Source: Escherichia coli (GTDB taxonomy: Bacteria > Pseudomonadota > Gammaproteobacteria > Enterobacterales > Enterobacteriaceae). From it: a stretch of 64,000 nt of DNA. The notes beneath the pieces are model-generated. The model saw only the letters and a list, made by a program, of their open reading frames with translations, was not told the origin of the DNA and did no database searches. The position numbers and the translations under genes are program-made. Below are positions 2,963 to 54,523 of the stretch, one piece after another (within the stretch, counting starts at the first letter, position 1; each line of letters starts with the position of its first letter). Where the stretch lies: the NCBI RefSeq assembly GCF_044647545.1, contig NZ_CP172818.1; one strand, 5' to 3'.

Positions 2963-4117
<1,155 letters not shown>

Positions 4118-4123
4118 TTAACA

Positions 4124-4148
4124 GCGGAGATCCGTTAAGGATCTCCGC
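4124..4148 (+). terminator. perfect 10-bp GC-rich inverted repeat (gcggagatcc/ggatctccgc, 5-nt loop) 7 nt after srlD stop; no U-run
   Basis: read directly in sequence; lacks a T-tract so may be an attenuator or processing hairpin rather than an intrinsic terminator. Confidence 0.4.
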
Positions 4149-5422: not shown

Positions 5423-6380
5423 AGCACTACTGAACGCGGGACGTCAGACGTTAATGCTGGAGTTGCAGGAAGCAAGCCGTTTACCGGAACGTCTGGGCGA
5501 TGATTTTGTTCGCGCCGCCAATATCATCCTGCACTGCGAAGGCAAAGTGGTGGTTTCGGGAATTGGCAAATCGGGCCACATTGGTAAGAAAATCGCCGCA
5601 ACGCTTGCCAGCACCGGCACTCCTGCCTTTTTTGTCCATCCGGCAGAGGCATTGCACGGCGACCTGGGGATGATCGAAAGCCGCGATGTGATGCTGTTTA
5701 TCTCTTACTCCGGTGGCGCGAAGGAACTGGATCTGATTATTCCGCGTCTGGAAGATAAATCTATCGCGCTGCTGGCGATGACCGGCAAACCGACGTCACC
5801 GCTGGGCCTGGCGGCGAAAGCGGTGCTGGATATCTCCGTAGAACGCGAAGCCTGTCCGATGCACCTTGCGCCGACCTCCAGCACCGTGAATACCCTGATG
5901 ATGGGTGACGCGCTGGCGATGGCGGTCATGCAGGCGCGCGGATTTAATGAAGAAGATTTTGCCCGCTCCCACCCTGCTGGAGCACTGGGCGCTCGCTTGC
6001 TGAATAAAGTGCATCATCTGATGCGCCGTGATGACGCTATCCCGCAGGTAGCGTTAACCGCCAGCGTGATGGATGCGATGCTGGAACTCAGCCGCACTGG
6101 TCTGGGGCTGGTGGCGGTATGTGACGCTCAACAACAGGTACAAGGCGTCTTTACCGACGGCGATTTACGTCGCTGGCTGGTTGGCGGCGGTGCACTCACC
6201 ACGCCAGTCAATGAAGCGATGACGGTCGGCGGCACCACGTTGCAATCGCAAAGCCGTGCCATCGACGCCAAAGAAATCCTGATGAAACGCAAAATCACCG
6301 CCGCACCGGTAGTGGATGAAAACGGCAAACTCACCGGCGCAATTAACCTGCAGGATTTCTATCAGGCCGGGATTATTTAA
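5415..6380 (+). CDS. gutQ: D-arabinose 5-phosphate isomerase (SIS + tandem CBS domains)
   Basis: 321 aa ORF with SIS motif [11 protein letters not shown]; overlaps srlR by 8 bp. Confidence 0.9.
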
Positions 6381-7891
6381 TCCTTCAGCCCCAGACGTTT
6401 CGCCAACCGATGCAAGTTGGCGACGTCGGTTTCCAGCATCCGTGCGCTGGCAGCCCAGTTGTGATGATTTTGTGCCAGTGCCTGACGAATGGTTTCACGC
6501 TGGAACGCTTCTGTCGCTTCACGCAGGTTTTGCTTAACGATAGGCACCGCCGCCGCTTCTGGCGGCGGCAACGTCACCTCAGGAAAAGCAAAATGTTGCG
6601 CTTCAAGAATCACTTCATCGCCGCTGCGGGTCGCTCTCGCCAGCACCACCGCCCGATGAATAGCATGTTCCAGTTCGCGCACGTTTCCCGGAAAACTGTA
6701 GTGTTGCAGTAAATTTCGCGCCCCGGCACTTAATACCACGCGGGAGAGCCCCAGCCGCAAACGACACTGCTCGCAGAAATACCCCGCCAGCAGAATGACA
6801 TCATCGCCCCGCTCACGCAGCGGCGGCACCGAAAGTGGGAACACGCTCAGGCGATGAAACAAATCGGCGCGGAATCGCCCTGCCAGCACCTCTTCGCGTA
6901 AGTCGCGGTTAGTCGCCGCCAGCACGCGCACATCGACCCGCAAACTGCGGTCATCGCCAACGCGCTGAATATCGCCATACTGCAACACCCTCAGCAGCTT
7001 GGCCTGCAATGCCAACGACAGCTCGCCGATCTCATCGAGAAACAGTGTGCCGTTATCCGCCATTTCAAACTTCCCGCTGCGGTTACTGATAGCGCCAGTA
7101 AACGCTCCTTTCACATGCCCGAACAACTCACTTTCCGCCACACTTTCCGGCAGTGCGGCACAGTTGAGATAGACCAGCGGATTCACCGCCCTTGGCGAGG
7201 TTTCATGAATCGCTTTCGCCACCAGCTCCTTACCGGTTCCCGTCTCACCGCTGATTAAGACGTTGAGATCGGACGCCGCCACAATCTCAATCTCTTTTTT
7301 CAATTGCGTCATGCCTGGCGACAAGCCAATCATCTGCGTCTGTTTCACCGCTTCAAACGGCGCGGCATCGCCCGGCAGCATATTCTGGCTTTCCAGTTGC
7401 TCAATCAGCAACGCATTGCTTAACGCTCCCGCCGCCAGCGCGGCAATCAGGCGTAACTCTTCGTCGCTGAAAACATCGAACTGATCGGGTTGCATCCCGT
7501 CGAGCGTCAATGCGCCGATCAGGTTTTGCCCGGCAAACAATGGCAGACCAACGCAGGCGTGAACCTTCAGACTCTCCTGCCCGGGAATCAAACCGTCATA
7601 GGGATCGGGCAATTCGCTGTCTGCGGGAAAGCGCACCACGTCCCCGGCGCGGGCAATCGCTTCCAGCCGTGGATGCCCTTCCAGCGCAAAGCGTCTACCG
7701 AGTACATCCTTCGCCAGCCCGTCGATGGCAAGCGGAATAAACTGCCGCGAGTCATAACGTAGCAACGCAGAGGCATCACACTCCAGCACCTGACGCAGCG
7801 TGGTGATCAGGCGCTGAAAACGATCCTGATGACCAATCCCACGCTGCAATTCGATGGCGATATTCGCCAGCACATCAACGGAAAAACTCAT
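6377..7891 (-). CDS. norR: sigma54-dependent NO-responsive transcriptional activator
   Basis: 504 aa ORF with GAF N-terminus, AAA+ domain with Walker A GETGTGKE and GAFTGA motif, C-terminal HTH. Confidence 0.92.
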
Positions 7892-7892
7892 C

Positions 7893-8030
7893 TTTGCCTC
7901 ACTGTCAATTTGACTATAGATATTGTCATATCGACCATTTTATTGATAGTCATTTTGACTACTCATTAATGAGCACAATTTTATTTATAGAGTAAAAACA
8001 ATCAGATAAAAAACTGGCACGCAATCTGCA
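7893..8030 (+). promoter_or_regulatory. norR-norV divergent control region: three GT-N7-AC NorR sites plus sigma54 -24/-12 element for norVW
   Basis: gtcaatttgac, gtcatatcgac and gtcattttgac seen at about 7895-7960; TGGCAC-N5-CTGCA at 8015..8030, about 48 bp upstream of norV ATG. Confidence 0.75.
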
Positions 8031-8077
8031 ATTAGCAAGACATCTTTTTAGAACACGCTGAATAAATTGAGGTTGCT

Positions 8078-9517
8078 ATGTCTATTGTGGTGAAAAATAA
8101 CATTCATTGGGTTGGTCAACGTGACTGGGAAGTGCGTGATTTTCACGGTACAGAATATAAAACGCTGCGCGGCAGCAGCTACAACAGCTACCTCATCCGT
8201 GAAGAAAAAAACGTGCTGATCGACACCGTCGACCATAAATTCAGCCGCGAATTTGTGCAGAACCTGCGTAATGAAATCGATCTGGCAGATATCGATTACA
8301 TCGTAATTAACCATGCTGAAGAGGACCACGCCGGGGCGCTGACCGAACTGATGGCGCAAATTCCCGATACGCCGATCTACTGTACAGCCAACGCTATCGA
8401 CTCGATAAATGGTCATCACCATCATCCGGAGTGGAATTTTAATGTGGTGAAAACTGGCGACACGCTGGATATCGGCAACGGCAAACAGCTCATTTTTGTC
8501 GAAACGCCAATGCTGCACTGGCCGGACAGCATGATGACTTACCTGACAGGCGACGCGGTGCTATTCAGTAACGATGCTTTCGGTCAGCACTACTGCGACG
8601 AGCATCTGTTCAACGATGAAGTGGATCAGACGGAGCTTTTCGAGCAGTGCCAGCGTTACTACGCCAATATCCTGACGCCGTTCAGCCGCCTGGTAACGCC
8701 GAAAATTACCGAGATCCTGGGCTTTAACTTGCCAGTCGATATGATAGCGACCTCTCACGGCGTGGTATGGCGCGATAACCCGACGCAAATTGTCGAGCTG
8801 TACCTGAAATGGGCGGCGGATTATCAGGAAGACAGAATCACCATTTTCTACGACACCATGTCGAATAACACCCGCATGATGGCTGACGCTATCGCCCAGG
8901 GGATTGCGGAAACCGACCCACGCGTGGCGGTGAAAATTTTCAACGTCGCCCGAAGCGATAAAAACGAAATCCTGACCAATGTCTTCCGCTCAAAAGGCGT
9001 CCTGGTCGGCACTTCGACGATGAATAATGTGATGATGCCGAAAATCGCCGGGCTGGTGGAGGAGATGACCGGATTACGCTTCCGTAACAAACGCGCCAGT
9101 GCTTTCGGCTCTCACGGCTGGAGCGGCGGTGCGGTGGATCGTCTTTCCACGCGCCTGCAGGATGCGGGTTTCGAAATGTCGCTTAGCCTGAAAGCCAAAT
9201 GGCGACCAGACCAGGACGCTCTGGAGTTATGTCGTGAACACGGTCGCGAAATCGCCCGTCAGTGGGCGCTCGCGCCGCTGCCGCAGAGCACGGTGAATAC
9301 GGTGGTTAAAGAAGAAACCTCTGCCGCCACGACGGCTGACCTCGGCCCACGGATGCAATGCAGCGTCTGCCAGTGGATTTACGATCCGGCAAAAGGTGAG
9401 CCAATGCAGGACGTTGCGCCAGGAACGCCGTGGAGTGAAGTCCCGGATAACTTCCTGTGCCCGGAATGCTCTCTCGGCAAAGACGTCTTTGACGAACTGG
9501 CATCGGAGGCAAAATGA
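8078..9517 (+). CDS. norV: anaerobic nitric oxide reductase flavorubredoxin
   Basis: 479 aa ORF: metallo-beta-lactamase-like di-iron domain, flavodoxin domain, C-terminal rubredoxin CxxC...CxxC (CSVCQWIY...CPECSLGK). Confidence 0.92.
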
Positions 9518-10647
9518 GCAACGGCATTGTGATCATTGGTTCGGGCTTCGCCGCCCGCCAACTGGTGAAAAATATTCGCAAACAGGACGCCAGTATTCCA
9601 TTAACTCTGATTGCCGCCGACAGCATGGATGAGTACAACAAACCTGACCTCAGCCATGTTATCAGTCAGGGGCAACGTGCCGATGACCTTACCCGCCAGA
9701 CGGCAGGTGAATTTGCCGAGCAGTTTAATCTGCGCTTGTTTCCGCACACCTGGGTAACGGATATCGATGCCGAAGCCCATGTGGTGAAAAGTCAGAATAA
9801 TCAGTGGCAATACGACAAGTTAGTGCTGGCAACCGGTGCCAGCGCCTTTGTCCCGCCAGTGCCCGGGCGTGAGTTAATGCTGACGTTAAATAGTCAGCAA
9901 GAGTATCGCGCCTGTGAAACGCAACTGCGGGATGCCCGACGCGTGTTGATTGTTGGCGGTGGCTTGATTGGTAGCGAGCTGGCGATGGATTTTTGTCGGG
10001 CAGGCAAAGCGGTCACGCTAATCGACAACGCTGCCAGTATTCTGGCGTCGTTAATGCCACCGGAAGTAAGCAGCCGCTTGCAGCATCGGTTGACGGAGAT
10101 GGGCGTTCATCTGCTGTTAAAATCTCAGTTGCAGGGACTGGAAAAAACAGATTCTGGCATTCTGGCAACGCTGGACCGCCAGCGCTGCATTGAAGTGGAT
10201 GCGGTAATTGCCGCCACCGGACTGCGCCCGGAAACCGCCCTGGCACGACGCGCCGGGCTGACGATTAATCGTGGCGTTTGCGTCGATAGCTATCTGCAAA
10301 CCAGTAATGCCGATATTTATGCGCTGGGCGATTGCGCGGAAATTAACGGTCAGGTATTGCCGTTCCTCCAGCCGATTCAACTTAGCGCAATGGTGCTGGC
10401 AAAAAATCTTCTCGGCAATAACACGCCGCTGAAACTACCGGCGATGCTGGTGAAAATCAAAACGCCGGAATTACCGCTGCATCTGGCAGGCGAAACCCAG
10501 CGTCAGGATTTACGCTGGCAAATTAATACCGAACGCCAGGGAATGGTTGCGCGCGGTGTTGACGATGCTGACCAGCTTCGCGCCTTTGTGGTCAGTGAGG
10601 ATCGGATGAAAGAGGCGTTTGGATTGTTGAAAACGTTGCCGATGTAG
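9514..10647 (+). CDS. norW: flavorubredoxin NADH reductase
   Basis: 377 aa ORF with N-terminal FAD-binding GxGxxG ([10 protein letters not shown]), 4-bp overlap with norV. Confidence 0.9.
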
Positions 10648-13645: not shown

Positions 13646-13752
13646 CAAATTCTCCAGCAATGACAGTTAATGCGCCGATACATTCACAAATCATGCCAGT
13701 TTTTAATTTACTGTTATTTAAAGAAATTAAATTCTGTAATGCAGGAAAAACG

Positions 13753-18005: not shown

Positions 18006-18124
18006 AATCTGGGGTTTGGCATCAGAAAAAAAAAGCTGGTGGCCTGTGCAGGCAGCACTAAGCTCAATAAAAAAGCGCACATCCCTGTTCTGATGTTCAA
18101 TTCCCTGAATTCCTTACTGAAAAA

Positions 18125-25525: not shown

Positions 25526-25987
25526 TCATGCTGCCGGGCTTTGTCCCTTTACCAGTTGGCTTAAATTCACCGGCACATTGTTTTCAATGGCGGTGTATAA
25601 GCTGTCGTAAACGCCAGCGATTTTTTCGAGATAGTGTTCCAGAACCTGTTCGCGATCGCGGATGTTGACCTTGCCATCAATCATGCCGTCAATGCTCAGT
25701 TGCGCCTGCGCAATCCGCTGTTTGTCTTCACCCTCTTTCGTTTCGACGTAATACTCGATGGTGTGGCTGTTAAAGCCATCCGCCAGGGTGACGTAAATAC
25801 GAAAATGTTCAAAAAGGACGAAACAGAGTTCTTTGTCCGGCGCGCAGCTCATGGCGTGATGCAGGCGCGCTTTCGATAACGTGATCCCCTGAACCAGCGA
25901 ATTGCAGTAGATGTGCCACTGGTCCTGTAGGCGACGATGCCGCTGTGCGATGTAATCGGCTTTCTCGCTTATTTCCCAAATAGTCAT
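25526..25987 (-). CDS. hycA: formate hydrogenlyase regulatory protein (anti-activator)
   Basis: 153 aa ORF MTIWEISEKADYIAQRHRRLQDQW, first gene of hyc operon. Confidence 0.9.
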   Translation of the reverse strand: MTIWEISEKADYIAQRHRRLQDQWHIYCNSLVQGITLSKARLHHAMSCAPDKELCFVLFEHFRIYVTLADGFNSHTIEYYVETKEGEDKQRIAQAQLSIDGMIDGKVNIRDREQVLEHYLEKIAGVYDSLYTAIENNVPVNLSQLVKGQSPAA

Positions 25988-26023: not shown

Positions 26024-26039
26024 AGCATTTTTTATGCCA
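26024..26039 (-). promoter_or_regulatory. sigma54 -24/-12 promoter of hyc operon
   Basis: minus-strand TGGCAT-aaaaa-ATGCT about 40 bp upstream of hycA start. Confidence 0.6.
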
Positions 26040-26094
26040 ACTTTTAATTCATTGTTATTAAAACGATTTTTAAGCTAAAGATGAATTTCGTCGC

Positions 26095-26127: not shown

Positions 26128-26152
26128 TATTCACCGCAGGGATAATCAACAC

Positions 26153-26168
26153 TGGCACAATTATTGCT
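26153..26168 (+). promoter_or_regulatory. sigma54 -24/-12 promoter of hyp operon
   Basis: TGGCAC-aatta-TTGCT 31 bp upstream of hypA ATG. Confidence 0.7.
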
Positions 26169-33047: not shown

Positions 33048-35609
33048 ATGAGTGCAATAGAAAATTTCGATGCCCATACGCCCATGATGCAGCAGTATCT
33101 CAAGCTGAAAGCCCAGCATCCCGAGATCCTGCTGTTTTACCGGATGGGCGACTTTTATGAACTGTTTTATGACGACGCAAAACGGGCGTCGCAACTGCTG
33201 GATATTTCACTGACCAAACGCGGTGCTTCAGCGGGAGAGCCAATCCCGATGGCGGGGATTCCCTACCATGCGGTGGAAAACTACCTCGCCAAACTGGTGA
33301 ACCAGGGCGAATCGGTTGCTATTTGTGAACAGATTGGCGATCCGGCGACCAGCAAAGGGCCGGTCGAGCGCAAAGTTGTCCGTATCGTTACGCCGGGCAC
33401 CATCAGCGATGAAGCGCTGTTGCAGGAACGTCAGGACAACCTGCTGGCGGCTATCTGGCAGGACAGTAAAGGTTTCGGCTACGCAACGCTGGATATCAGT
33501 TCCGGTCGTTTTCGCCTGAGCGAACCGGCGGACCGCGAAACGATGGCGGCAGAACTGCAACGTACGAATCCAGCGGAATTACTGTATGCGGAAGATTTCG
33601 CCGAGATGTCGCTGATTGAAGGTCGCCGCGGCCTGCGTCGTCGCCCGCTGTGGGAGTTTGAAATCGACACCGCGCGCCAGCAGTTAAACTTGCAATTTGG
33701 CACTCGCGATCTGGTCGGTTTTGGCGTCGAGAACGCGCCGCGCGGACTTTGTGCCGCCGGTTGTCTGTTGCAATATGCGAAAGATACCCAACGCACGACC
33801 CTGCCGCATATTCGTTCTATCACTATGGAACGTGAGCAGGACAGCATCATTATGGATGCCGCGACGCGTCGTAACCTGGAAATCACCCAGAATCTGGCGG
33901 GTGGTGCGGAAAATACGCTGGCTTCTGTGCTCGACTGCACCGTCACGCCGATGGGCAGCCGTATGCTGAAACGCTGGCTGCATATGCCAGTGCGCGATAC
34001 CCGCGTCTTGCTTGAGCGCCAGCAAACTATTGGCGCATTGCAGGATTTCACCGCCGAGCTGCAGCCGGTACTGCGTCAGGTCGGCGACCTGGAACGTATT
34101 CTGGCGCGTCTGGCTTTACGAACCGCTCGCCCACGCGATCTGGCCCGTATGCGTCACGCTTTCCAGCAACTGCCGGAGCTGCGTGCACTATTAGAAAATG
34201 TCGAAAGCGCACCGGTACAGGCGCTGCGTGAGAAGATGGGCGAGTTTGCCGAACTGCGCGATCTGCTGGAGCGGGCCATTATCGACACACCGCCGGTACT
34301 GGTGCGCGACGGTGGTGTTATCGCGCCGGGCTATAACGAAGAGCTGGATGAGTGGCGGGCGCTGGCTGACGGCGCGACCGATTATCTGGAGCGTCTGGAA
34401 ATCCGCGAGCGTGAACGTACCGGCCTGGACACGCTGAAAGTCGGCTTTAACGCGGTTCATGGTTATTACATTCAGATCAGCCGTGGACAAAGCCATCTGG
34501 CACCCATCAACTATATGCGTCGCCAGACGCTGAAAAACGCCGAACGCTACATTATTCCAGAGCTAAAAGAGTATGAAGACAAAGTACTCACCTCGAAAGG
34601 TAAAGCACTGGCACTGGAAAAACAGCTTTATGAAGAGTTGTTCGACCTGCTGTTGCCGCATCTGGAAGCGTTGCAACAGAGCGCGAGCGCGCTGGCGGAA
34701 CTCGACGTGCTGGTGAACCTGGCGGAACGGGCCTATACCCTGAACTACACCTGCCCGACCTTTATTGATAAACCTGGCATTCGCATTACCGAAGGCCGCC
34801 ATCCAGTGGTTGAACAGGTACTGAACGAACCGTTTATCGCTAACCCGCTAAACCTGTCGCCACAGCGCCGCATGTTGATCATTACCGGTCCGAACATGGG
34901 CGGTAAAAGTACCTATATGCGCCAGACCGCGTTGATTGCGCTGATGGCGTATATCGGCAGCTACGTACCGGCGCAAAAAGTCGAGATTGGCCCGATCGAC
35001 CGTATCTTTACCCGCGTAGGCGCGGCAGACGATCTGGCATCCGGGCGTTCAACCTTTATGGTGGAGATGACCGAAACCGCCAATATTTTACATAACGCCA
35101 CCGAATATAGTCTGGTGTTGATGGATGAGATCGGGCGTGGAACGTCCACTTACGATGGTCTGTCGCTGGCGTGGGCATGCGCGGAAAATCTGGCAAATAA
35201 GATCAAAGCGTTGACGCTGTTTGCTACCCACTATTTCGAGCTGACCCAGTTACCGGAGAAAATGGAAGGCGTCGCCAACGTGCATCTCGATGCGCTGGAG
35301 CACGGCGACACCATTGCCTTTATGCACAGCGTGCAGGATGGCGCGGCGAGCAAAAGCTACGGCCTGGCGGTTGCAGCTCTGGCAGGCGTGCCAAAAGAGG
35401 TTATTAAGCGCGCACGGCAAAAACTGCGTGAGCTGGAAAGCATTTCGCCGAACGCCGCCGCTACACAGGTTGATGGTACGCAGATGTCCCTGCTTTCTGC
35501 GCCAGAAGAAACGTCGCCTGCGGTCGAGGCACTGGAAAACCTCGACCCGGATTCACTGACTCCGCGTCAGGCGCTGGAGTGGATTTATCGGTTGAAGAGT
35601 CTGGTGTAA
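33048..35609 (+). CDS. mutS: DNA mismatch repair protein MutS
   Basis: 853 aa ORF; N-terminal mismatch-binding GDFYELF, Walker [10 protein letters not shown]. Confidence 0.95.
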
Positions 35610-35714: not shown

Positions 35715-36371
35715 ATGCCATCTACACGCTATCAAAAAATTAATGCCCATCACTATCGTTATATATGGGCCGTTGGTGATATTCATGGTGACTATCAATT
35801 ATTACAATCCCGCTTACATCAACTCTCTTTTTGCCCTGAAACCGACTTACTTATTTCCACAGGCGATAATATTGATCGTGGGCCGAAGAGTCTTAACGTG
35901 CTGCACCTGCTAAACCAACCCTGGTTTACGTCGGTTAAAGGCAACCACGAAGCGATGGCGTTGGATGCATTCGAAACTGGCGATGGAAATATGTGGCTTG
36001 CCAGCGGTGGTGACTGGTTTTTCGATTTAAATGATTCAGAGCAACAAGCGGCAATAGATCTGTTGCTGAAATTCCATCACCTTCCACATATTATTGAAGT
36101 TACTAACGACAACACAAAATATGTCATCACACATGCAGATTATCCGGGGAATGAATATCTCTTTGGTAAAGAAATAGCGGAGAGCGAATTACTCTGGCCT
36201 GTTGATCGTGTGCAGAAATCGCTTAATGGCGAGTTACAACAAATAAACGGCGCTGATTATTTTATATTTGGACATATGGTGTTTGATAACATTCAGACGT
36301 TCGCAAACCAGATTTATATTGATACCGGATCGCCGAAAAGCGGGCGGCTGTCATTTTATAAAATAAAGTAG
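35715..36371 (+). CDS. pphB: serine/threonine protein phosphatase 2 (calcineurin-like metallophosphatase)
   Basis: 218 aa ORF with GDIHGD and GDNIDRGP metallophosphatase motifs. Confidence 0.9.
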   Translation: MPSTRYQKINAHHYRYIWAVGDIHGDYQLLQSRLHQLSFCPETDLLISTGDNIDRGPKSLNVLHLLNQPWFTSVKGNHEAMALDAFETGDGNMWLASGGDWFFDLNDSEQQAAIDLLLKFHHLPHIIEVTNDNTKYVITHADYPGNEYLFGKEIAESELLWPVDRVQKSLNGELQQINGADYFIFGHMVFDNIQTFANQIYIDTGSPKSGRLSFYKIK

Positions 36372-36372
36372 T

Positions 36373-36398
36373 CTCATGCTTCTTCTGTGAAGCATGAG
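36373..36398. terminator. 10-bp perfect hairpin (ctcatgcttc-ttctgt-gaagcatgag) between convergent pphB and ygbI
   Basis: read in sequence 2 nt after pphB stop. Confidence 0.5.
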
Positions 36399-36399
36399 T

Positions 36400-37150
36400 A
36401 ACCGAGATGTTCTGCAGGCCCCTACTCATTTTTCGCTACCAGCAAAGAGAGATCCTGCTTCGCCAGCACGCAACTGGCGCTCTCCGGCGAAGCCGCATAT
36501 CTAATAATCTGATCAAACTAGTAATGGTAACGCCAGCCATGTCGCCACCTGACCATATTTCGTCGCATCACAGACCAAAACTCGCTGGCGGCTGGCACTG
36601 GCAATCGCCCGTTTCACCGTGACTTTATCTTTCCGCTGGCGTAAATCCCCCGCACACTCCATGACGATGCAGAAATAAAAACCTGATCAATCATCAGGCT
36701 GCGCAGCATGGTCGCAGCGGCTTCCCCGACACAGGAACGGTTTTCCCGACACACTGCACCGCCAGTGTGAATAATTGTGCAATTACTGTTGTCAGCAAGT
36801 AGTTCGCAATAACGAAATCGTTTGTGACCACAGTCAGTGACTCCATGTGAATCAGATGCTGTGCTATCGCTAACGTGGTCGTTCCCGCATCCAGATAGAT
36901 ACAACTTTCCGGCTGAACAGACTTTTGCCGCCAGCTTGCCAATAGCCGCTTTTTGCGTCATTGCCAGCGCAGTTTTACCTAAGTTCGCCATGCGCCACGC
37001 GTCCCGGAGACTGGACGCCTCCGGACACCCAGCACAACGGCTCCCTGCTGCTCCAGTTTTTGTAAATCCCGACGAATGGTCATATGTGACACATTACTCA
37101 TTCTGTCCGTTAGTTCAGCAATACTGACAATGCCTTTTTCAGCTTATCTC
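36400..37150 (-). pseudogene. ygbI: DeoR-family regulator YgbI, reading frame broken in several places
   Basis: minus-strand translation gives DeoR HTH fragment VSHMTIRRDLQKLEQQGAVVLGV and a C-terminal sugar-binding fragment (ORF 36614..36991) in different frames separated by stops. Confidence 0.5.
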
Positions 37151-37382
37151 AAGGATCATCTGGCGACGCTCTACGGGTATCAACTTTTGCTCCTTCCTTT
37201 GTCCTGCTGACATTCTACGCTATTTGCCTGCGAAACGTGCGCGGCGCAACTAACGCTTAGTTCACATAAAATAACACACAATGTTAATTTATGTGAATCA
37301 GCTCACCATATCGTTATCTTCCAGCGCTTATATTCACAATATCAAACAAAATATCACTTAAATTAACCAACAAGGAGAGCAG

Positions 37383-38291
37383 ATGAAAACGGGATCTGAG
37401 TTTCATGTCGGTATCGTTGGCTTAGGGTGAATGGGAATGGGAGCAGCACTGTCATGTGTCACGAGCAGGTCTTTCTACCTGGGGCGCAGACCTGAACAGC
37501 AATGCCTGCGCTACGTTGAAAGAGGCAGGTGCTTGCGGGGTTGCTTGATAACGCCGCGACGTTTGCCGAAAAACTGGACATTATGCTGGTGCTGGTGGTA
37601 AATGCGGCCCAGGTTAAACAGGTGCTGTTTGGTGAAACGGCGTTTGCACAACATCTGAAACCCGGTACGGCAGTAATGGTTTCTTCCACTATCGCTAGTG
37701 CTGATCGCGCAAGAAATTGCTACCGCTCTGGCTGGATTCGATCTGGAAATGCTGGATGCGCCAGTTTCTGGTGGTGCAGTAAAAGCCGCTAACGGTGAAA
37801 TGACTGTCATGGCCTCCGGTAGCGATATTGCCTTTGAACGACTGGCACCCGTGCTGGAAGCCGTTGCCGGAAAAGTTTATCGCATAGGTGCAGAACCGGG
37901 ACTAAAGAGTTCGACCATTAAAGTTCTTCACCAGTTAGCGGGCGTACATATTGCTGCCGGAGCCGAAGCGATGGCACTTGCAGCCCGTGGGATCCCGCTG
38001 GATGTGATGTATGACGTCGTGACCAATGCCGCCGGAAATTCCTGGATGTTCGAAAACCAGATACGTCATGTGGTGGATGGCGATTACACCCCGCATTCAG
38101 CCGTCGATATTTTTGTTAAGGATCTTGGTCTGGTTGCCGATACAGCCAAAGCCCTGCACTTCCCGCTGCCATTGGCCTCAACAGCATTGAATATGTTCAC
38201 CAGCGCCAGTAACGCGGGTTACGGGAAAGAAGACGATAGCGCAGTTATCAAGATTTTCTCTGGCATCACTCTACCGGGAGCGAAATCATGA
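37383..38291 (+). pseudogene. ygbJ: 3-hydroxyisobutyrate dehydrogenase-family enzyme YgbJ (putative L-threonate dehydrogenase) with premature stop and compensating frameshifts
   Basis: ATG 37383 then GIVGLG Rossmann start, TGA at codon 16 (37428); middle segment readable in frame of ORF 37529..37792 and C-terminal 197 aa in ORF 37698..38291; total span 909 nt equals an intact 302-aa gene. Confidence 0.55.
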
Positions 38292-39454
38292 TCAAGATTG
38301 GCGTTATCGCCGATGATTTTACCGGCGCGACGGATATCGCCAGTTTTCTGGTGGAAAACGGTCTACCAACGGTACAAATTAACGGTGTTCCAACAGGTAA
38401 AATGCCGGAAGCAATCGACGCACTGGTGATCAGCCTGAAAACGCGCTCCTGTCCAGTGGTTGAAGCCACACAGCAATCGCTGGCGGCTCTGAGCTGGTTG
38501 CAACAGCAAGGTTGCAAACAGATCTATTTCAAATACTGCTCTACTTTCGACAGTACGGCGAAAGGTAATATTGGCCCGGTTACCGATGCCTTAATGGATG
38601 CTCTCGACACGCCGTTTACGGTCTTCTCTCCGGCCCTGCCGGTCAACGGACGTACGGTTTATCAGGGGTATTTGTTCGTAATGAATCAACTGCTGGCCGA
38701 ATCCGGGATGCGCCATCACCCGGTAAATCCCATGACCGACAGCTATCTTCCCCGTCTGGTTGAAGCGCAATCCACAGGGCGCTGCGGCGTCGTTTCGGCA
38801 CATGTTTTCGAACAAGGTGTGGATGCCGTTCGTCAAGAGCTGGCTCGCTTACAGCAAGAGGGCTACCGCTACGCGGTGCTTGATGCGCTGACCGAACACC
38901 ATCTGGAAATTCAGGGAGAAGCCTTGCGCGATGCCCCACTGGTAACGGGCGGTTCTGGTCTGGCGATTGGCCTGGCCCGGCAGTGGGCGCAAGAAAACGG
39001 TAACCAGGCTCGCAAAGCAGGGCGTCCGCTCGCTGGGCGCGGCGTAGTGCTCTCCGGTTCATGCTCTCAAATGACCAACCGCCAGGTAGCACATTACCGT
39101 CAAATTGCACCAGCCCGTGAAGTTGATGTGGCACGCTGCCTCTCAATTGAAACTCTGGCCGCTTATGCACACGAACTGGCAGAGTGGGTTCTGGGCCAGG
39201 AAAGTGTACTTGCTCCACTGGTTTTTGCCACCGCCAGCACTGACGCATTGGCAGCAATTCAACAGCAATACGGTGCACAAAAAGCCAGTCAGGCAGTAGA
39301 AACACTGTTTTCTCAACTAGCGGCGCGGTTAGCAGCGGAAGGCGTGACACGCTTTATTGTCGCAGGCGGTGAGACCTCCGGCGTAGTCACACAGAGCCTG
39401 GGAATAAAAGGGTTTCATATTGGCCCAACCATTTCCCCGGCGTGCCGTGGGTAA
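38288..39454 (+). CDS. ygbK: four-carbon acid sugar kinase family protein YgbK (putative 3-oxo-tetronate kinase)
   Basis: 388 aa ORF MIKIGVIADDFTGATDIASFL (DUF1537 N-terminus); 4-bp overlap with ygbJ stop. Confidence 0.8.
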   Translation: MIKIGVIADDFTGATDIASFLVENGLPTVQINGVPTGKMPEAIDALVISLKTRSCPVVEATQQSLAALSWLQQQGCKQIYFKYCSTFDSTAKGNIGPVTDALMDALDTPFTVFSPALPVNGRTVYQGYLFVMNQLLAESGMRHHPVNPMTDSYLPRLVEAQSTGRCGVVSAHVFEQGVDAVRQELARLQQEGYRYAVLDALTEHHLEIQGEALRDAPLVTGGSGLAIGLARQWAQENGNQARKAGRPLAGRGVVLSGSCSQMTNRQVAHYRQIAPAREVDVARCLSIETLAAYAHELAEWVLGQESVLAPLVFATASTDALAAIQQQYGAQKASQAVETLFSQLAARLAAEGVTRFIVAGGETSGVVTQSLGIKGFHIGPTISPACRG

Positions 39455-39545
39455 ACGCACTGGATAAGCCTGTCTCACTCGCCCTTAAATCTGGCAACTT
39501 CGGTGATGACGCCTTTTTTTCACGAGCCCAAAGAGAGTTTTTATC

Positions 39546-40184
39546 ATGAGCGATTTCGCAAAAGTAGAGCAGTCTTTGCGAGAGGAGATGACGCGGATTG
39601 CCAGTTCATTCTTTCAGCGCGGCTATGCAACCGGTTCGGCTGGCAATCTGTCGCTGCTTTTACCTGACGGGAATTTACTGGCGACACCGACAGGTTCATG
39701 CCTGGGCAATCTCGATCCGCAGCGGCTTTCCAAAGTCGCCGCGGATGGCGAATGGTTAAGTGGTGACAAACCCTCGAAAGAGGTGCTCTTTCATCTGGCG
39801 CTGTATCGCAACAATCCGCGCTGTAAAGCGGTGGTGCATTTGCACAGCACATGGTCGACGGCGCTTTCCTGCCTGCAAGGGCTGGACAGCAGCAACGTTA
39901 TTCGTCCGTTCACACCATACGTGGTGATGCGGATGGGAAATGTCCCGCTGGTGCCTTATTACCGACCGGGCGATAAACGCATCGCACAGGATCTGGCGGA
40001 ACTGGCAGCAGACAATCAGGCTTTTTTACTGGCAAATCATGGCCCAGTGGTTTGCGGTGAAAGCCTGCAAGAAGCCGCCAACAATATGGAAGAGCTGGAG
40101 GAAACGGCAAAGCTGATTTTTATTCTCGGTGACCGCCCGATCCGTTATCTGACCGCAGGTGAAATTGCGGAATTAAGGAGTTAA
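39546..40184 (+). CDS. ygbL: class II aldolase/adducin-family protein YgbL (putative 3-oxo-tetronate 4-phosphate decarboxylase)
   Basis: 212 aa ORF, class II aldolase fold signature (HLHS, GS). Confidence 0.8.
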
Positions 40185-40188
40185 TGCA

Positions 40189-40965
40189 ATGCCTCGTTTT
40201 GCAGCTAATTTATCCATGATGTTCACCGAAGTGCCTTTTATTGAACGCTTCGCCGCAGCGCGAAAAGCCGGGTTCGATGCTGTGGAATTTCTGTTTCCCT
40301 ATAACTACTCCACCCTGCAAATCCAAAAGCAACTGGAGCAAAACCATCTGACACTGGCGCTGTTCAATACCGCTCCCGGAGATATTAATGCGGGGGAATG
40401 GGGATTATCCGCCCTTCCCGGACGTGAGCACGAAGCACACGCAGACATCGACCTGGCACTGGAATATGCATTGGCGCTCAATTGTGAACAAGTCCATGTG
40501 ATGGCAGGCGTCGTGCCCGCTGGCGAAGATGCTGAACGGTACCGGGCAGTATTTATCGATAATATCCGCTACGCTGCCGACCGCTTTGCGCCACACGGCA
40601 AGCGAATATTAGTTGAAGCACTCAGCCCCGGCGTTAAGCCTCATTATCTCTTCTCCAGCCAGTATCAGGCACTGGCTATTGTTGAAGAGGTTGCGCGAGA
40701 TAACGTGTTTATTCAACTAGATACTTTTCATGCGCAAAAAGTAGATGGCAACCTGACGCATTTAATCCGCGACTACGCCGGGAAATATGCGCACGTACAA
40801 ATTGCCGGACTACCTGATCGACATGAACCGGACGATGGAGAAATCAACTATCCGTGGCTGTTCCGCCTGTTCGATGAGGTGGGATATCAGGGCTGGATCG
40901 GTTGTGAATATAAACCTCGTGGCCTCACCGAAGAAGGGCTTGGCTGGTTTGACGCCTGGCGCTAA
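40189..40965 (+). CDS. ygbM: hydroxypyruvate isomerase-like TIM-barrel protein YgbM (putative 2-oxo-tetronate isomerase)
   Basis: 258 aa ORF, xylose isomerase-like TIM barrel. Confidence 0.8.
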
Positions 40966-41053
40966 TTCGTTAAATCCCTAATTACAACGTACCCATACAT
41001 CCCCCCATCTACGGATGGGGTAGGTTAACTATAACTTTCAGACAGGGTTTCCC

Positions 41054-42418
41054 ATGTCCACAATTACATTGTTATGCATTGCGTTAGCTGGCGTAATCAT
41101 GCTGTTGCTGCTGGTCATCAAGGCAAAGGTACAACCATTCGTTGCTTTGCTCCTCGTCAGCCTGTTAGTCGCACTTGCGGCAGGTATACCGGCGGGCGAA
41201 GTGGGTAAAGTGATGATCGCCGGGATGGGCGGTGTGCTTGGTTCCGTCACTATTATTATTGGTCTGGGCGCTATGCTGGGGCGTATGATCGAACACTCTG
41301 GTGGTGCAGAGTCACTGGCTAATTATTTCAGTCGCAAGTTAGGTGACAAACGAACTATCGCTGCGCTGACTCTGGCAGCGTTCTTCCTCGGTATTCCCGT
41401 CTTCTTTGATGTCGGCTTTATTATTCTTGCGCCAATCATTTACGGTTTTGCCAAGGTTGCCAAAATATCGCCACTCAAATTTGGCCTGCCTGTCGCTGGG
41501 ATCATGCTCACTGTTCACGTGGCGGTACCGCCGCATCCAGGCCCTGTCGCCGCAGCGGGGTTACTCCACGCAGACATCGGCTGGCTAACCATCATCGGTA
41601 TTGCGATTTCTATTCCCGTAGGGGTTGTTGGCTACTTTGCAGCGAAAATAATCAATAAGCGCCAATATGCGATGTCAGTAGAAGTACTGGAACAGATGCA
41701 ACTGGCTCCGGCCAGTGAGGAAGGCGCGACAAAATTAAGCGATAAAATAAATCCACCGGGCGTCGCGCTGGTCACCTCGCTAATTGTTATTCCTATCGCG
41801 ATTATCATGGCGGGTACGGTTTCCGCAACACTGATGCCGCCTTCGCATCCCCTGCTTGGTACGCTACAGCTGATCGGCTCACCAATGGTAGCTCTAATGA
41901 TTGCGCTGGTGCTGGCATTCTGGTTATTGGCTTTACGTCGCGGCTGGAGCTTACAACACACCAGCGACATTATGGGCTCAGCGCTTCCTACTGCGGCGGT
42001 AGTGATTTTGGTTACTGGTGCTGGAGGGGTATTTGGCAAAGTGCTGGTGGAATCGGGCGTCGGCAAAGCCCTTGCCAACATGCTACAAATGATTGACCTG
42101 CCTCTGTTACCAGCCGCATTTATTATTTCACTGGCGCTGCGTGCATCGCAGGGGTCAGCAACCGTAGCAATACTGACAACCGGCGGGTTACTCTCAGAAG
42201 CGGTGATGGGATTGAATCCGATTCAGTGCGTATTGGTGACGCTGGCAGCCTGCTTTGGTGGGCTTGGTGCGTCACATATTAATGACTCAGGGTTCTGGAT
42301 TGTGACCAAATATCTGGGGTTGTCGGTAGCAGACGGTCTGAAAACCTGGACAGTGTTAACGACCATTCTCGGTTTTACCGGATTCTTAATTACCTGGTGC
42401 GTATGGGCGGTAATTTGA
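41054..42418 (+). CDS. ygbN: GntP-family acid sugar transporter
   Basis: 454 aa polytopic membrane ORF. Confidence 0.85.
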   Translation: MSTITLLCIALAGVIMLLLLVIKAKVQPFVALLLVSLLVALAAGIPAGEVGKVMIAGMGGVLGSVTIIIGLGAMLGRMIEHSGGAESLANYFSRKLGDKRTIAALTLAAFFLGIPVFFDVGFIILAPIIYGFAKVAKISPLKFGLPVAGIMLTVHVAVPPHPGPVAAAGLLHADIGWLTIIGIAISIPVGVVGYFAAKIINKRQYAMSVEVLEQMQLAPASEEGATKLSDKINPPGVALVTSLIVIPIAIIMAGTVSATLMPPSHPLLGTLQLIGSPMVALMIALVLAFWLLALRRGWSLQHTSDIMGSALPTAAVVILVTGAGGVFGKVLVESGVGKALANMLQMIDLPLLPAAFIISLALRASQGSATVAILTTGGLLSEAVMGLNPIQCVLVTLAACFGGLGASHINDSGFWIVTKYLGLSVADGLKTWTVLTTILGFTGFLITWCVWAVI

Positions 42419-42424
42419 CCTTAA

Positions 42425-42457
42425 TAAAAAGGTCCGATGGGCATCGGACCTTTTATT
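42425..42457. terminator. bidirectional intrinsic terminator between ygbN and rpoS
   Basis: aaaa-ggtccgat-gggc-atcggacc-ttttatt: 8-bp GC-rich stem flanked by A-run and T-run. Confidence 0.8.
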
Positions 42458-42511
42458 GTGCACAGAAAAGGCCAGCCTCATAAGAGACTGGCCTTTATGA
42501 CAGATGCTTAC

Positions 42512-52282: not shown

Positions 52283-52533
52283 AACCGTTCCTTTGCAATA
52301 CCGCTATTTTCTTGCCATCAGATGTTTCGACTATAGGGAGCGCAGGAGAACGAATGAAATTACCAATTAGAATGAGTAGTTCCTTAACGGAATAACGATT
52401 TGGCAAAGCTAATGTCAAAAAGTGCTTAAGGCACCAGATTTCGGGCGTTTAGGAAGATTTGAAATTGTTTTAGCGCATCGGCAGTTTCATACTATGGCGG
52501 TAAAAAAATTTGCATGGTATTTAAGGACTCACT

Positions 52534-53571
52534 ATGTTTTCCGCATTGCGCCACCGTACCGCTGCCCTGGCGCTCGGCGTATGCTTTATTCTCCCCGTAC
52601 ACGCCTCGTCACCTAAACCTGGCGATTTTGCTAATACCCAGGCACGACATATTGCTACTTTCTTTCCGGGACGCATGACCGGAACTCCTGCAGAAATGTT
52701 ATCTGCCGATTATATTCGCCAACAGTTTCAGCAAATGGGTTATCGCAGTGATATTCGGACATTTAATAGTCGGTATATTTATACCGCCCGCGATAATCGC
52801 AAGAGCTGGCATAACGTGACGGGAAGTACGGTGATTGCCGCTCATGAAGGCAAAGCTCCGCAGCAGATTATCATTATGGCGCATCTGGATACTTACGCCC
52901 CGCTGAGCGATGCTGACGCCGATGCCAATCTCGGCGGGCTGACGTTACAAGGAATGGATGATAACGCCGCAGGTTTAGGTGTCATGCTGGAATTGGCAGA
53001 ACGCCTGAAAAATACGCCTACCGAGTATGGTATTCGATTTGTGGCGACCAGCGGCGAAGAGGAAGGGAAATTAGGCGCTGAGAATTTACTCAAGCGGATG
53101 AGTGACACCGAAAAGAAAAATACGCTGCTGGTGATTAATCTCGATAACTTAATTGTTGGCGATAAATTGTATTTCAACAGTGGTGTAAAAACCCCTGAAG
53201 CAGTAAGGAAATTAACGCGCGACAGGGCACTGGCAATTGCGCGTAGTCATGGAATTGCCGCAACGACCAATCCGGGTTTGAATAAAAATTATCCGAAGGG
53301 TACTGGCTGTTGTAATGACGCCGAAGTTTTCGACAAAGCCGGTATTGCGGTACTTTCGGTGGAGGCGACCAACTGGAATCTTGGAAATAAGGATGGTTAT
53401 CAGCAACGCTCAAAAACACCGGCCTTCCCGGCGGGAAATAGCTGGCATGATGTAAGGCTTGATAATCAACAGCATATTGATAAGGCGCTTCCTGGAAGAA
53501 TAGAACGTCGTTGCCGTGATGTTATGCGGATAATACTACCGCTGGTGAAGAAACTGGCGAAGGCGTCTTGA
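52534..53571 (+). CDS. iap: alkaline phosphatase isozyme conversion aminopeptidase (M28 family)
   Basis: 345 aa ORF with signal peptide and M28 peptidase metal-binding motifs. Confidence 0.9.
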   Translation: MFSALRHRTAALALGVCFILPVHASSPKPGDFANTQARHIATFFPGRMTGTPAEMLSADYIRQQFQQMGYRSDIRTFNSRYIYTARDNRKSWHNVTGSTVIAAHEGKAPQQIIIMAHLDTYAPLSDADADANLGGLTLQGMDDNAAGLGVMLELAERLKNTPTEYGIRFVATSGEEEGKLGAENLLKRMSDTEKKNTLLVINLDNLIVGDKLYFNSGVKTPEAVRKLTRDRALAIARSHGIAATTNPGLNKNYPKGTGCCNDAEVFDKAGIAVLSVEATNWNLGNKDGYQQRSKTPAFPAGNSWHDVRLDNQQHIDKALPGRIERRCRDVMRIILPLVKKLAKAS

Positions 53572-53652
53572 TGGGTTTGAAAATGGGAGCTGCGAGTTCT
53601 ACCGCAGGGGCGGGGAATTCTAAGTGATATCCATCATCGCATCCAGTGCGCC

Positions 53653-54418
53653 CGGTTTATCCCCGCTGGCGCGGGGAATCGCCGGAAAATATTCATGATG
53701 GGGGTGGTTATGGCGGTTTATCCCCGCTGGCGCGGGGAATCTCGGGGCCGCCGTGTTCACATTTGCCTAATTTCCCGGTTTATCCCCGCTGGCGCGGGGA
53801 ACTCTATCATAAACGAGGTGAATTTATGGAAACTGTACGGTTTATCCCCGCTGGCGCGGGGAACTCGTTAGTTTTCGAAAAAATTGTTTTCTTACGCTGG
53901 TTTATCCCCGCTGGCGCGGGGAACTCAATTATTGTCGTGGACAAATGCCGGTGTTATTGCGGTTTATCCCCGCTGGCGCGGGGAACTCATTCGAGACAAT
54001 CTCTCAAAATTAATGAAATCGGTTTATCCCCGCTGGCGCGGGGAACTCCAGGTATCAAGAAATAATCGAAGCCTTCATGACGGTTTATCCCCGCTGGCGC
54101 GGGGAACTCAATTGATTGCTGGGTGATATTGGAAAATGTTGCGGTTTATCCCCGCTGGCGCGGGGAACTCCTACCGTACAGATCCTGACCGGATATTATT
54201 TTTTTGCGGTTTATCCCCGCTGGCGCGGGGAACTCCGACGTTCGACGAAATGCGCGATGGCGGTCGGCGGTTTATCCCCGCTGGCGCGGGGAACTCTTCT
54301 GCGTCCCCGATGTCTGGCCCGACTGGTCCGGTTTATCCCCGCTGGCGCGGGGAACTCTATATGACCGGAACACTTCCGCCTGACGTTTGCGGTTTATCCC
54401 CGCTGGCGCGGGGAACTC
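53653..54418 (-). CRISPR. type I-E CRISPR array: 13 copies of 29-bp repeat (minus-strand GAGTTCCCCGCGCCAGCGGGGATAAACCG), 12 spacers
   Basis: repeat starts on + strand at 53653, 53714, 53776, 53838, 53898, 53960, 54020, 54081, 54142, 54207, 54268, 54329, 54390; distal repeats degenerate; spacers about 31-33 nt except one of 36 nt. Confidence 0.97.
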
Positions 54419-54523
54419 TCTAAAAGTATACATTTGTTCTTAAAGCATTTTTTCCCATAAAAACAACCCACCAACCTTAATGTAACATTTCCTTATTATT
54501 AAAGATCAGCTAATTCTTTGTTT
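54419..54523 (-). promoter_or_regulatory. AT-rich CRISPR leader between cas2 stop and first repeat
   Basis: 105 bp AT-rich tract adjacent to consensus repeats; the degenerate repeat is at the opposite end. Confidence 0.8.

Follow-up and report, generated by a model that had tools for sequence, protein, structure and literature searches.

The norR-norVW intergenic region of an Escherichia coli strain carries the known NorR enhancer and sigma54 promoter architecture

Introduction

The closest described system to the region analysed here is the norR/norVW spacer of Escherichia coli (E. coli) K-12, which gSELEX identified as the single NorR target in that strain (PMC8249747). It contains three repeats whose consensus has the core GT-N7-AC (PMC2831303; PMC1274295). 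NorR shields these sites from methylation, a GG-N7-CC change in any single one of them abolishes norV-lacZ induction, and all three are indispensable for the ATPase activity of the protein; ring-shaped higher oligomers (hexamer rings) of NorR have been seen on a 266-bp fragment, with the DNA serving as the assembly ligand (PMC2831303). NO at the iron of the GAF domain, whose ligands are listed as R75, D96, D99, C113, and D131 (PMC4601167), releases the AAA+ domain for action on sigma54 via the GAFTGA motif (PMC2941729; PMC4601167), and IHF has been described as binding between the enhancer and the promoter (PMC2831303, introduction; PMC4601167, Fig. 4 legend). With respect to the promoter, the sigma54 ChIP-seq study of Bonocora et al. 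includes norV as motif OS25, which is flagged as experimentally confirmed in EcoCyc (PMC4591121). That study predicts the transcription start as the motif centre plus 19 bp and lists a distance of 37 for norV.

Like the NorR system, that of NtrC at glnAp2 has dyad-symmetric sites upstream of the promoter, loops to a sigma54 closed complex, and uses ATP to drive promoter opening. The two differ in how they are controlled, that is, by phosphorylation-driven oligomerisation in NtrC as opposed to control by the GAF domain on an oligomer that is already bound to DNA in NorR (for NorR, PMC2831303). Further, unlike NtrC and other bEBPs, NorR requires DNA for hexamer assembly and ATPase activity, with three sites being indispensable; a parallel has been drawn to TyrR, for which three TyrR boxes form a hexamer (PMC2831303). 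Here, we describe the norR-norV region of an E. coli genome within a 64,000-nt stretch of DNA (hereafter, the window), and compare it with K-12 and with related loci.

Results

In the window, norR occupies positions 6377-7891 on the minus strand (504 aa, with its ATG at 7891) and encodes the sigma54-dependent, NO-sensing enhancer-binding protein with GAF, AAA+, and HTH domains. norV, at 8078-9517 on the plus strand, encodes a full-length (479 aa) flavorubredoxin NO reductase, and the norW ORF, which overlaps that of norV (9514-10647, plus strand; 377 aa), encodes NADH:flavorubredoxin reductase. All three proteins matched NCBIfam equivalog models, namely NF003451 for NorR (824.6 bits vs. a cut-off of 476), NF003954 for NorV (1047 vs. 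711), and NF003437 for NorW (685.6 vs. 392). NorR carries GAFTGA at residue 262 and retains R75, R81, D96, D99, C113, and D131, so that all five iron ligands are intact; it shows 8 amino acid changes relative to K-12, and NorV shows 3. The rpoN and ihf genes are outside the window.

The intergenic region between norR and norV is 186 bp long, with 68% A+T. Gene order, the 186-bp length, the three boxes, the -24/-12 motif, and the leader are all the same as in K-12 MG1655, and only 3 of the 186 positions differ, none of them in a box, the promoter, or the leader. These single-nucleotide differences are T for G at 7941 (between sites 2 and 1), and A for G at 7972 and C for T at 7976, both in the spacer between the enhancer and the promoter.

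A sequence-only reading of this region had reported three inverted repeats spread over about 60 bp, and we found all three at the places that it gave, with a measured spread of 56 bp. Specifically, NorR enhancer site 3 (GTCAATTTGAC, 7904-7914) is promoter-distal and 13 bp from the norR ATG, site 2 (GTCATATCGAC) is at 7925-7935, and site 1 (GTCATTTTGAC, 7949-7959) is promoter-proximal. Measured between centres, neighbouring boxes are 21 and 24 bp apart, and the centres lie at about -132, -111, and -87, respectively, from the predicted norV transcription start (below). The reading had also proposed a comparison with published NorR footprints, and the K-12 reagents of PMC2831303 do fall on these boxes, with no box differing. 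That is, the Site3 mutagenic primer aligns to 7892-7921 with its two designed changes as the only mismatches, the Site2 primer aligns to 7918-7943 with its two designed changes plus the 7941 difference, the Site 1 primer corresponds to 7949-7959, and the 21-bp NorR1 oligonucleotide matches 7945-7965 exactly. It follows from this mapping that the published site 1 is the promoter-proximal one and that site 3 abuts norR.

A fourth NorR-box-like palindrome, GTCAACGTGAC, is found at 8115-8125, within norV (codons 13-16) and about 75 nt past the predicted start. It also occurs in E. albertii, Pseudescherichia, and Enterobacter cloacae, and takes the form GTCAGCGTGAC in Moellerella; conserved codons may explain this recurrence.

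Downstream of the boxes, the core element TGGCACGCAATCTGCA is present on the plus strand at 8015-8030, exactly where TGGCAC-N5-CTGCA had been read, with canonical -24/-12 spacing and facing norV. The slightly longer motif CTGGCACGCAATCTGCA (PnorV; 8014-8030, plus strand; -24 GG at 8016-8017 and -12 GC at 8028-8029) is identical to ChIP-seq motif OS25 for norV (PMC4591121, Table 1), and the sigma54 assignment was thus borne out when checked against published promoters. The description of the motif as lying immediately upstream of norV was accurate as to "upstream" but not as to "immediately", since 47 bp separate the end of the motif from the ATG and a 37-nt leader is predicted in between. By the rule of PMC4591121, norV transcription is predicted to start at 8041, about 12 nt past the -12 GC, which would give a leader at 8041-8077 (plus strand) with a Shine-Dalgarno GAGG at 8069-8072. 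An Rfam scan of positions 7000-9000 at E<=1 matched no family, and hence no known RNA element in the leader.

Further known sigma54 promoters in the window, all corresponding to ChIP-seq motifs of PMC4591121, are located at 13683-13699 (minus strand), 26024-26040 (minus), and 26152-26168 (plus). The hydN and hypA motifs match that study exactly, and the hycA motif carries one change (TTGGCATAAAAAATGCT vs. TTGGCACAAAAAATGCT in K-12). A near-consensus sigma54 motif, TGGCACATCTACTGCA, also lies in sense orientation at 25903-25918 (minus strand), within the 5' portion of hycA (25526-25987, minus strand); the E. coli sigma54 ChIP-seq paper does not list it in its main-text tables.

The A+T-rich spacer between enhancer and promoter spans 7960-8013 and contains two of the three differences from K-12 (7972 and 7976). 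It is to this spacer that the literature assigns IHF binding and DNA bending. A scan with the IHF consensus WATCARNNNNTTR, allowing at most one mismatch, gave no match within 7960-8013, and the sole intergenic match was at 7936-7948 on the minus strand; the scan discriminates weakly, with 131 matches in the window vs. 86 expected. Any role of IHF at the spacer of this strain would thus be a literature-based attribution. Just upstream of the -24 element, we also noted ATCAA-N4-TTA, which is common in other Enterobacterales.

A scan for three GTCA-N4-GAC boxes, with each species represented by one genome and a pattern that imposed neither a -24 element nor linkage to NorR, gave at least 120 loci, which are a sample and not a census. 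About three quarters of the matches listed were tandem repeats or chance matches in unrelated phyla without a NorR homologue, and in at least 27 loci the match is flanked by the start of a gene for a NorR homologue (45-97% identity). We compared the layout of 25 of these, and since they were chosen for having three boxes, conservation of the boxes within this set is circular. Boxes 3 and 1 were 43-46 bp apart (45 bp in 18 of the 25), and a TGGCA[CT] -24 element was present in every one of the 25. This element follows box 1 by 64-67 bp in the norV-type Enterobacterales loci and by 75 bp in the single Shewanella norV-type locus. The layout agrees with earlier comparative work (PMC1274295).

The NorR-hmp (fhp) promoters of Pseudomonas and Comamonadaceae are like the locus in the window in having three GTCA-N4-GAC boxes (box 3 lying 44-46 bp from box 1), a divergent norR homologue, and a downstream TGGCA[CT] -24 element, but they differ in several respects. 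Their target is the flavohaemoprotein Hmp (NF009805) rather than norVW, the promoter is 51-53 bp from box 1 as opposed to 66 bp in the window, and the box spacings are 19-21 and 25-26 bp as opposed to 21 and 24 bp; NorR is only 45-53% identical.

Many NorR-linked promoters combine a perfect -24 element (TGGCAC/T) with a -12 element that lacks the canonical GC. TTGAT, CTGTA, GTGAT, or CTGAG then stand in place of TTGCA, with TG alone being constant. Such loci include seven from Enterobacter, Pseudescherichia, and others, and seven from Pseudomonas.

The position of the boxes also bears on norR itself. Site 3 is only 13 bp from the norR ATG, and therefore any norR transcript must begin within or beyond the boxes. 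A scan of 7800-8150 for sigma70 promoters and terminators found none on the norR strand, so no norR promoter was assigned; the one plus-strand promoter-like site in the same scan (7923-7950) is at chance level (1 vs. 1.2 expected). Based on the anatomy of the region, it is very likely that the boxes double as operators for norR autoregulation, and their location on the path of norR transcription is consistent with the reported control of both norR and norVW by NorR (PMC8249747). One could go further and propose that NorR uses the boxes chiefly as operators to repress norR, itself driven by sigma70, with norVW activation being secondary or exerted via other sites. In favour of such a proposal, NorR bound at the boxes would occupy, or lie downstream of, any norR promoter, NorR does regulate norR in addition to norVW, and autoregulation of Vibrio norR2 via a NorR site has been proposed (PMC1274295). 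However, norV-lacZ activation and NorR ATPase activity both require every one of the boxes, the fixed spacing between box 1 and a -24 element across the 25 loci makes sense only for an enhancer-promoter unit, and the minus strand has no sigma70 promoter above chance. The published K-12 box mutations, which abolish norVW induction, refute operator function as the sole role, and the two roles are compatible, which makes the operator an added function rather than an alternative one. We therefore regard a chiefly operator role as very improbable, and continue to read the boxes as the enhancer of norVW.

Whether such motifs could arise by chance depends on how strictly the box is defined. The loose core GT-N7-AC has 197 matches in the window, and triples of it within 60 bp also occur at 157-210 and 33419-33480, with no sigma54 motif nearby; the published GT-N7-AC consensus alone is therefore insufficient for calling NorR sites. 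The extended palindrome GTCA-N4-GAC gave 15 strand matches in the window vs. 5.6 expected (a count reached in none of 100 shuffles), and a cluster of three within 60 bp is seen a single time in the window, with a Poisson expectation of about 5e-5 per window and no occurrence in 300 first-order Markov simulations. The signal resides in the extended palindrome, not in the loose core. Likewise, TGGCAC-N5-YTGCW matched 3 times vs. 0.17 expected. Hence, although the abundance of the loose core, its triples elsewhere, and the A+T-richness of the intergenic region could be taken to mean that the repeats and TGGCAC-N5-CTGCA are functionless chance matches, these figures, the identity of boxes and promoter to experimentally proven sites, the conservation of the architecture over Enterobacterales, Shewanella, Pseudomonas, and Comamonadaceae, and the published mutagenesis already refute this notion, leaving it a vanishingly small probability. 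Equally improbable, in our assessment, is that another nitrogen-oxide regulator (e.g., FNR, NarL/NarP, or NsrR) binds the palindromes and controls norVW instead of NorR: some regulatory elements of the promoter are indeed said to be omitted from the figure of PMC4601167 (Fig. 4 legend) and norVW of Photobacterium profundum is NsrR-regulated (PMC1274295), but GTCA-N3-TGAC is unlike the NsrR consensus gATGyAT-N5-ATrCATc or the FNR-like CTTGAT-N4-ATCAAG (PMC1274295), at least 27 loci have the triple box together with a NorR homologue, and NorR itself protects these sites from methylation.

Turning to variation within the species, a 601-bp query around the site was matched by 5,425 of the 5,426 complete genomes of E. 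coli, and the match invariably fell on genes annotated as norR and norV. One of the 5,426 genomes had no match, one record is a plasmid copy, and some genomes matched in up to 3 places. The 186-bp intergenic region was at least 99% identical to that of the window in about 440 of 5,426 records, the 42-bp segment with boxes 3 and 2 was identical in 5,042 of 5,425, and the segment comprising promoter and leader was identical in 3,509 of 5,426. Most of the E. coli variation falls in the spacer, with several of the variant positions lying in 7960-7998, and the leader was unchanged among the genomes sampled. The variants that we inspected, which are samples, keep the GT/AC and GG/GC consensus bases with a single exception (AF3, below). 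For instance, a variant of box 2, GTCATATTGAC, spares the consensus bases, and a promoter variant has a C to T change inside the N5.

Two alleles with larger changes were found. Among the 5,426 genomes, only the E. coli blood isolate AF3 (NZ_OZ547117.1; positions 3989-4129 of locus L002) has less than 80% of the region covered. A deletion has removed 45 bp between its boxes 3 and 1, which are homologous, and a single hybrid NorR box remains. As K-12 needs every one of the three sites (PMC2831303), norVW of AF3 is predicted to be non-inducible. In strain AHM8C160RI (NZ_CP104598.1; approximately positions 131-223 of locus L129), 14 bp within the sigma54 promoter of norV are duplicated in tandem (CACGCAATCTGCAA). 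One intact TGGCACGCAATCTGCA is retained, and its distance to the norV ATG has grown by 14 bp.

A few differences between the window and its closest genome, NZ_CP033850.1, were also observed outside the norR-norVW region. The two are not colinear at about 18026-18032 and 36371-42465. The ascB-hycI interval of the window is without the 562-bp insertion of NZ_CP033850.1, which comprises an HTH gene and a small hypothetical gene. The mutS-rpoS region of the window contains a ygb cluster like that of K-12 (ORFs of 388, 212, 258, and 454 aa) and not hydroxyarylic acid decarboxylase genes, and the ORFs at the places expected for ygbI and ygbJ look shortened. Finally, 52532-54419, which lies beside iap and holds the type I-E CRISPR array, shares only about 90% identity with the closest genome, with many gaps, as opposed to more than 99.8% in the flanks, a divergence that fits a different spacer content of the array.

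Discussion

Taken together, our results make it nearly certain that this region provides the norVW operon with its NorR-dependent enhancer and its sigma54 promoter, and none of them contradicts this reading. Identity with K-12, the positions of the published primers, the match to OS25, and the equivalog-level neighbours all support the sequence-only reading of the region as an enhancer and promoter for NorR-dependent NO detoxification. That reading was also right to treat the site as well-characterised rather than novel, given that the K-12 region has already been characterised experimentally; the feature is already known and is intact in this strain.

If the steps described in the K-12 literature hold here, three NorR dimers would bind the three dyad-symmetric boxes, with the DNA acting as both scaffold and ligand in promoting the NorR hexamer's assembly, while sigma54 RNA polymerase would wait as a closed complex on the -24/-12 element. 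IHF would bend the A+T-rich spacer and thereby let the enhancer and promoter complexes touch. Binding of NO to the mononuclear iron of the GAF domain would then release the AAA+ domain, whose ATP hydrolysis would open the promoter, leading to norVW transcription from about position 8041.

It is conceivable, albeit unlikely, that the differences from K-12 at 7941, 7972, and 7976 alter IHF-assisted looping or NorR wrapping and thus give this lineage a norVW induction threshold or amplitude of its own relative to K-12. If that were the case, these differences, along with the 45-bp deletion and 14-bp duplication alleles, would amount to regulatory tuning of NO defence at the population level.

More broadly, the norVW promoter is a textbook case of enhancer DNA that serves as the assembly ligand for a bEBP hexamer, and its recovery here represents a positive control, in that a real regulatory architecture could be recognised from sequence alone. 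NorVW ranks among the main systems with which enteric bacteria detoxify NO anaerobically, and with the region intact, this strain should mount a normal NorR response.
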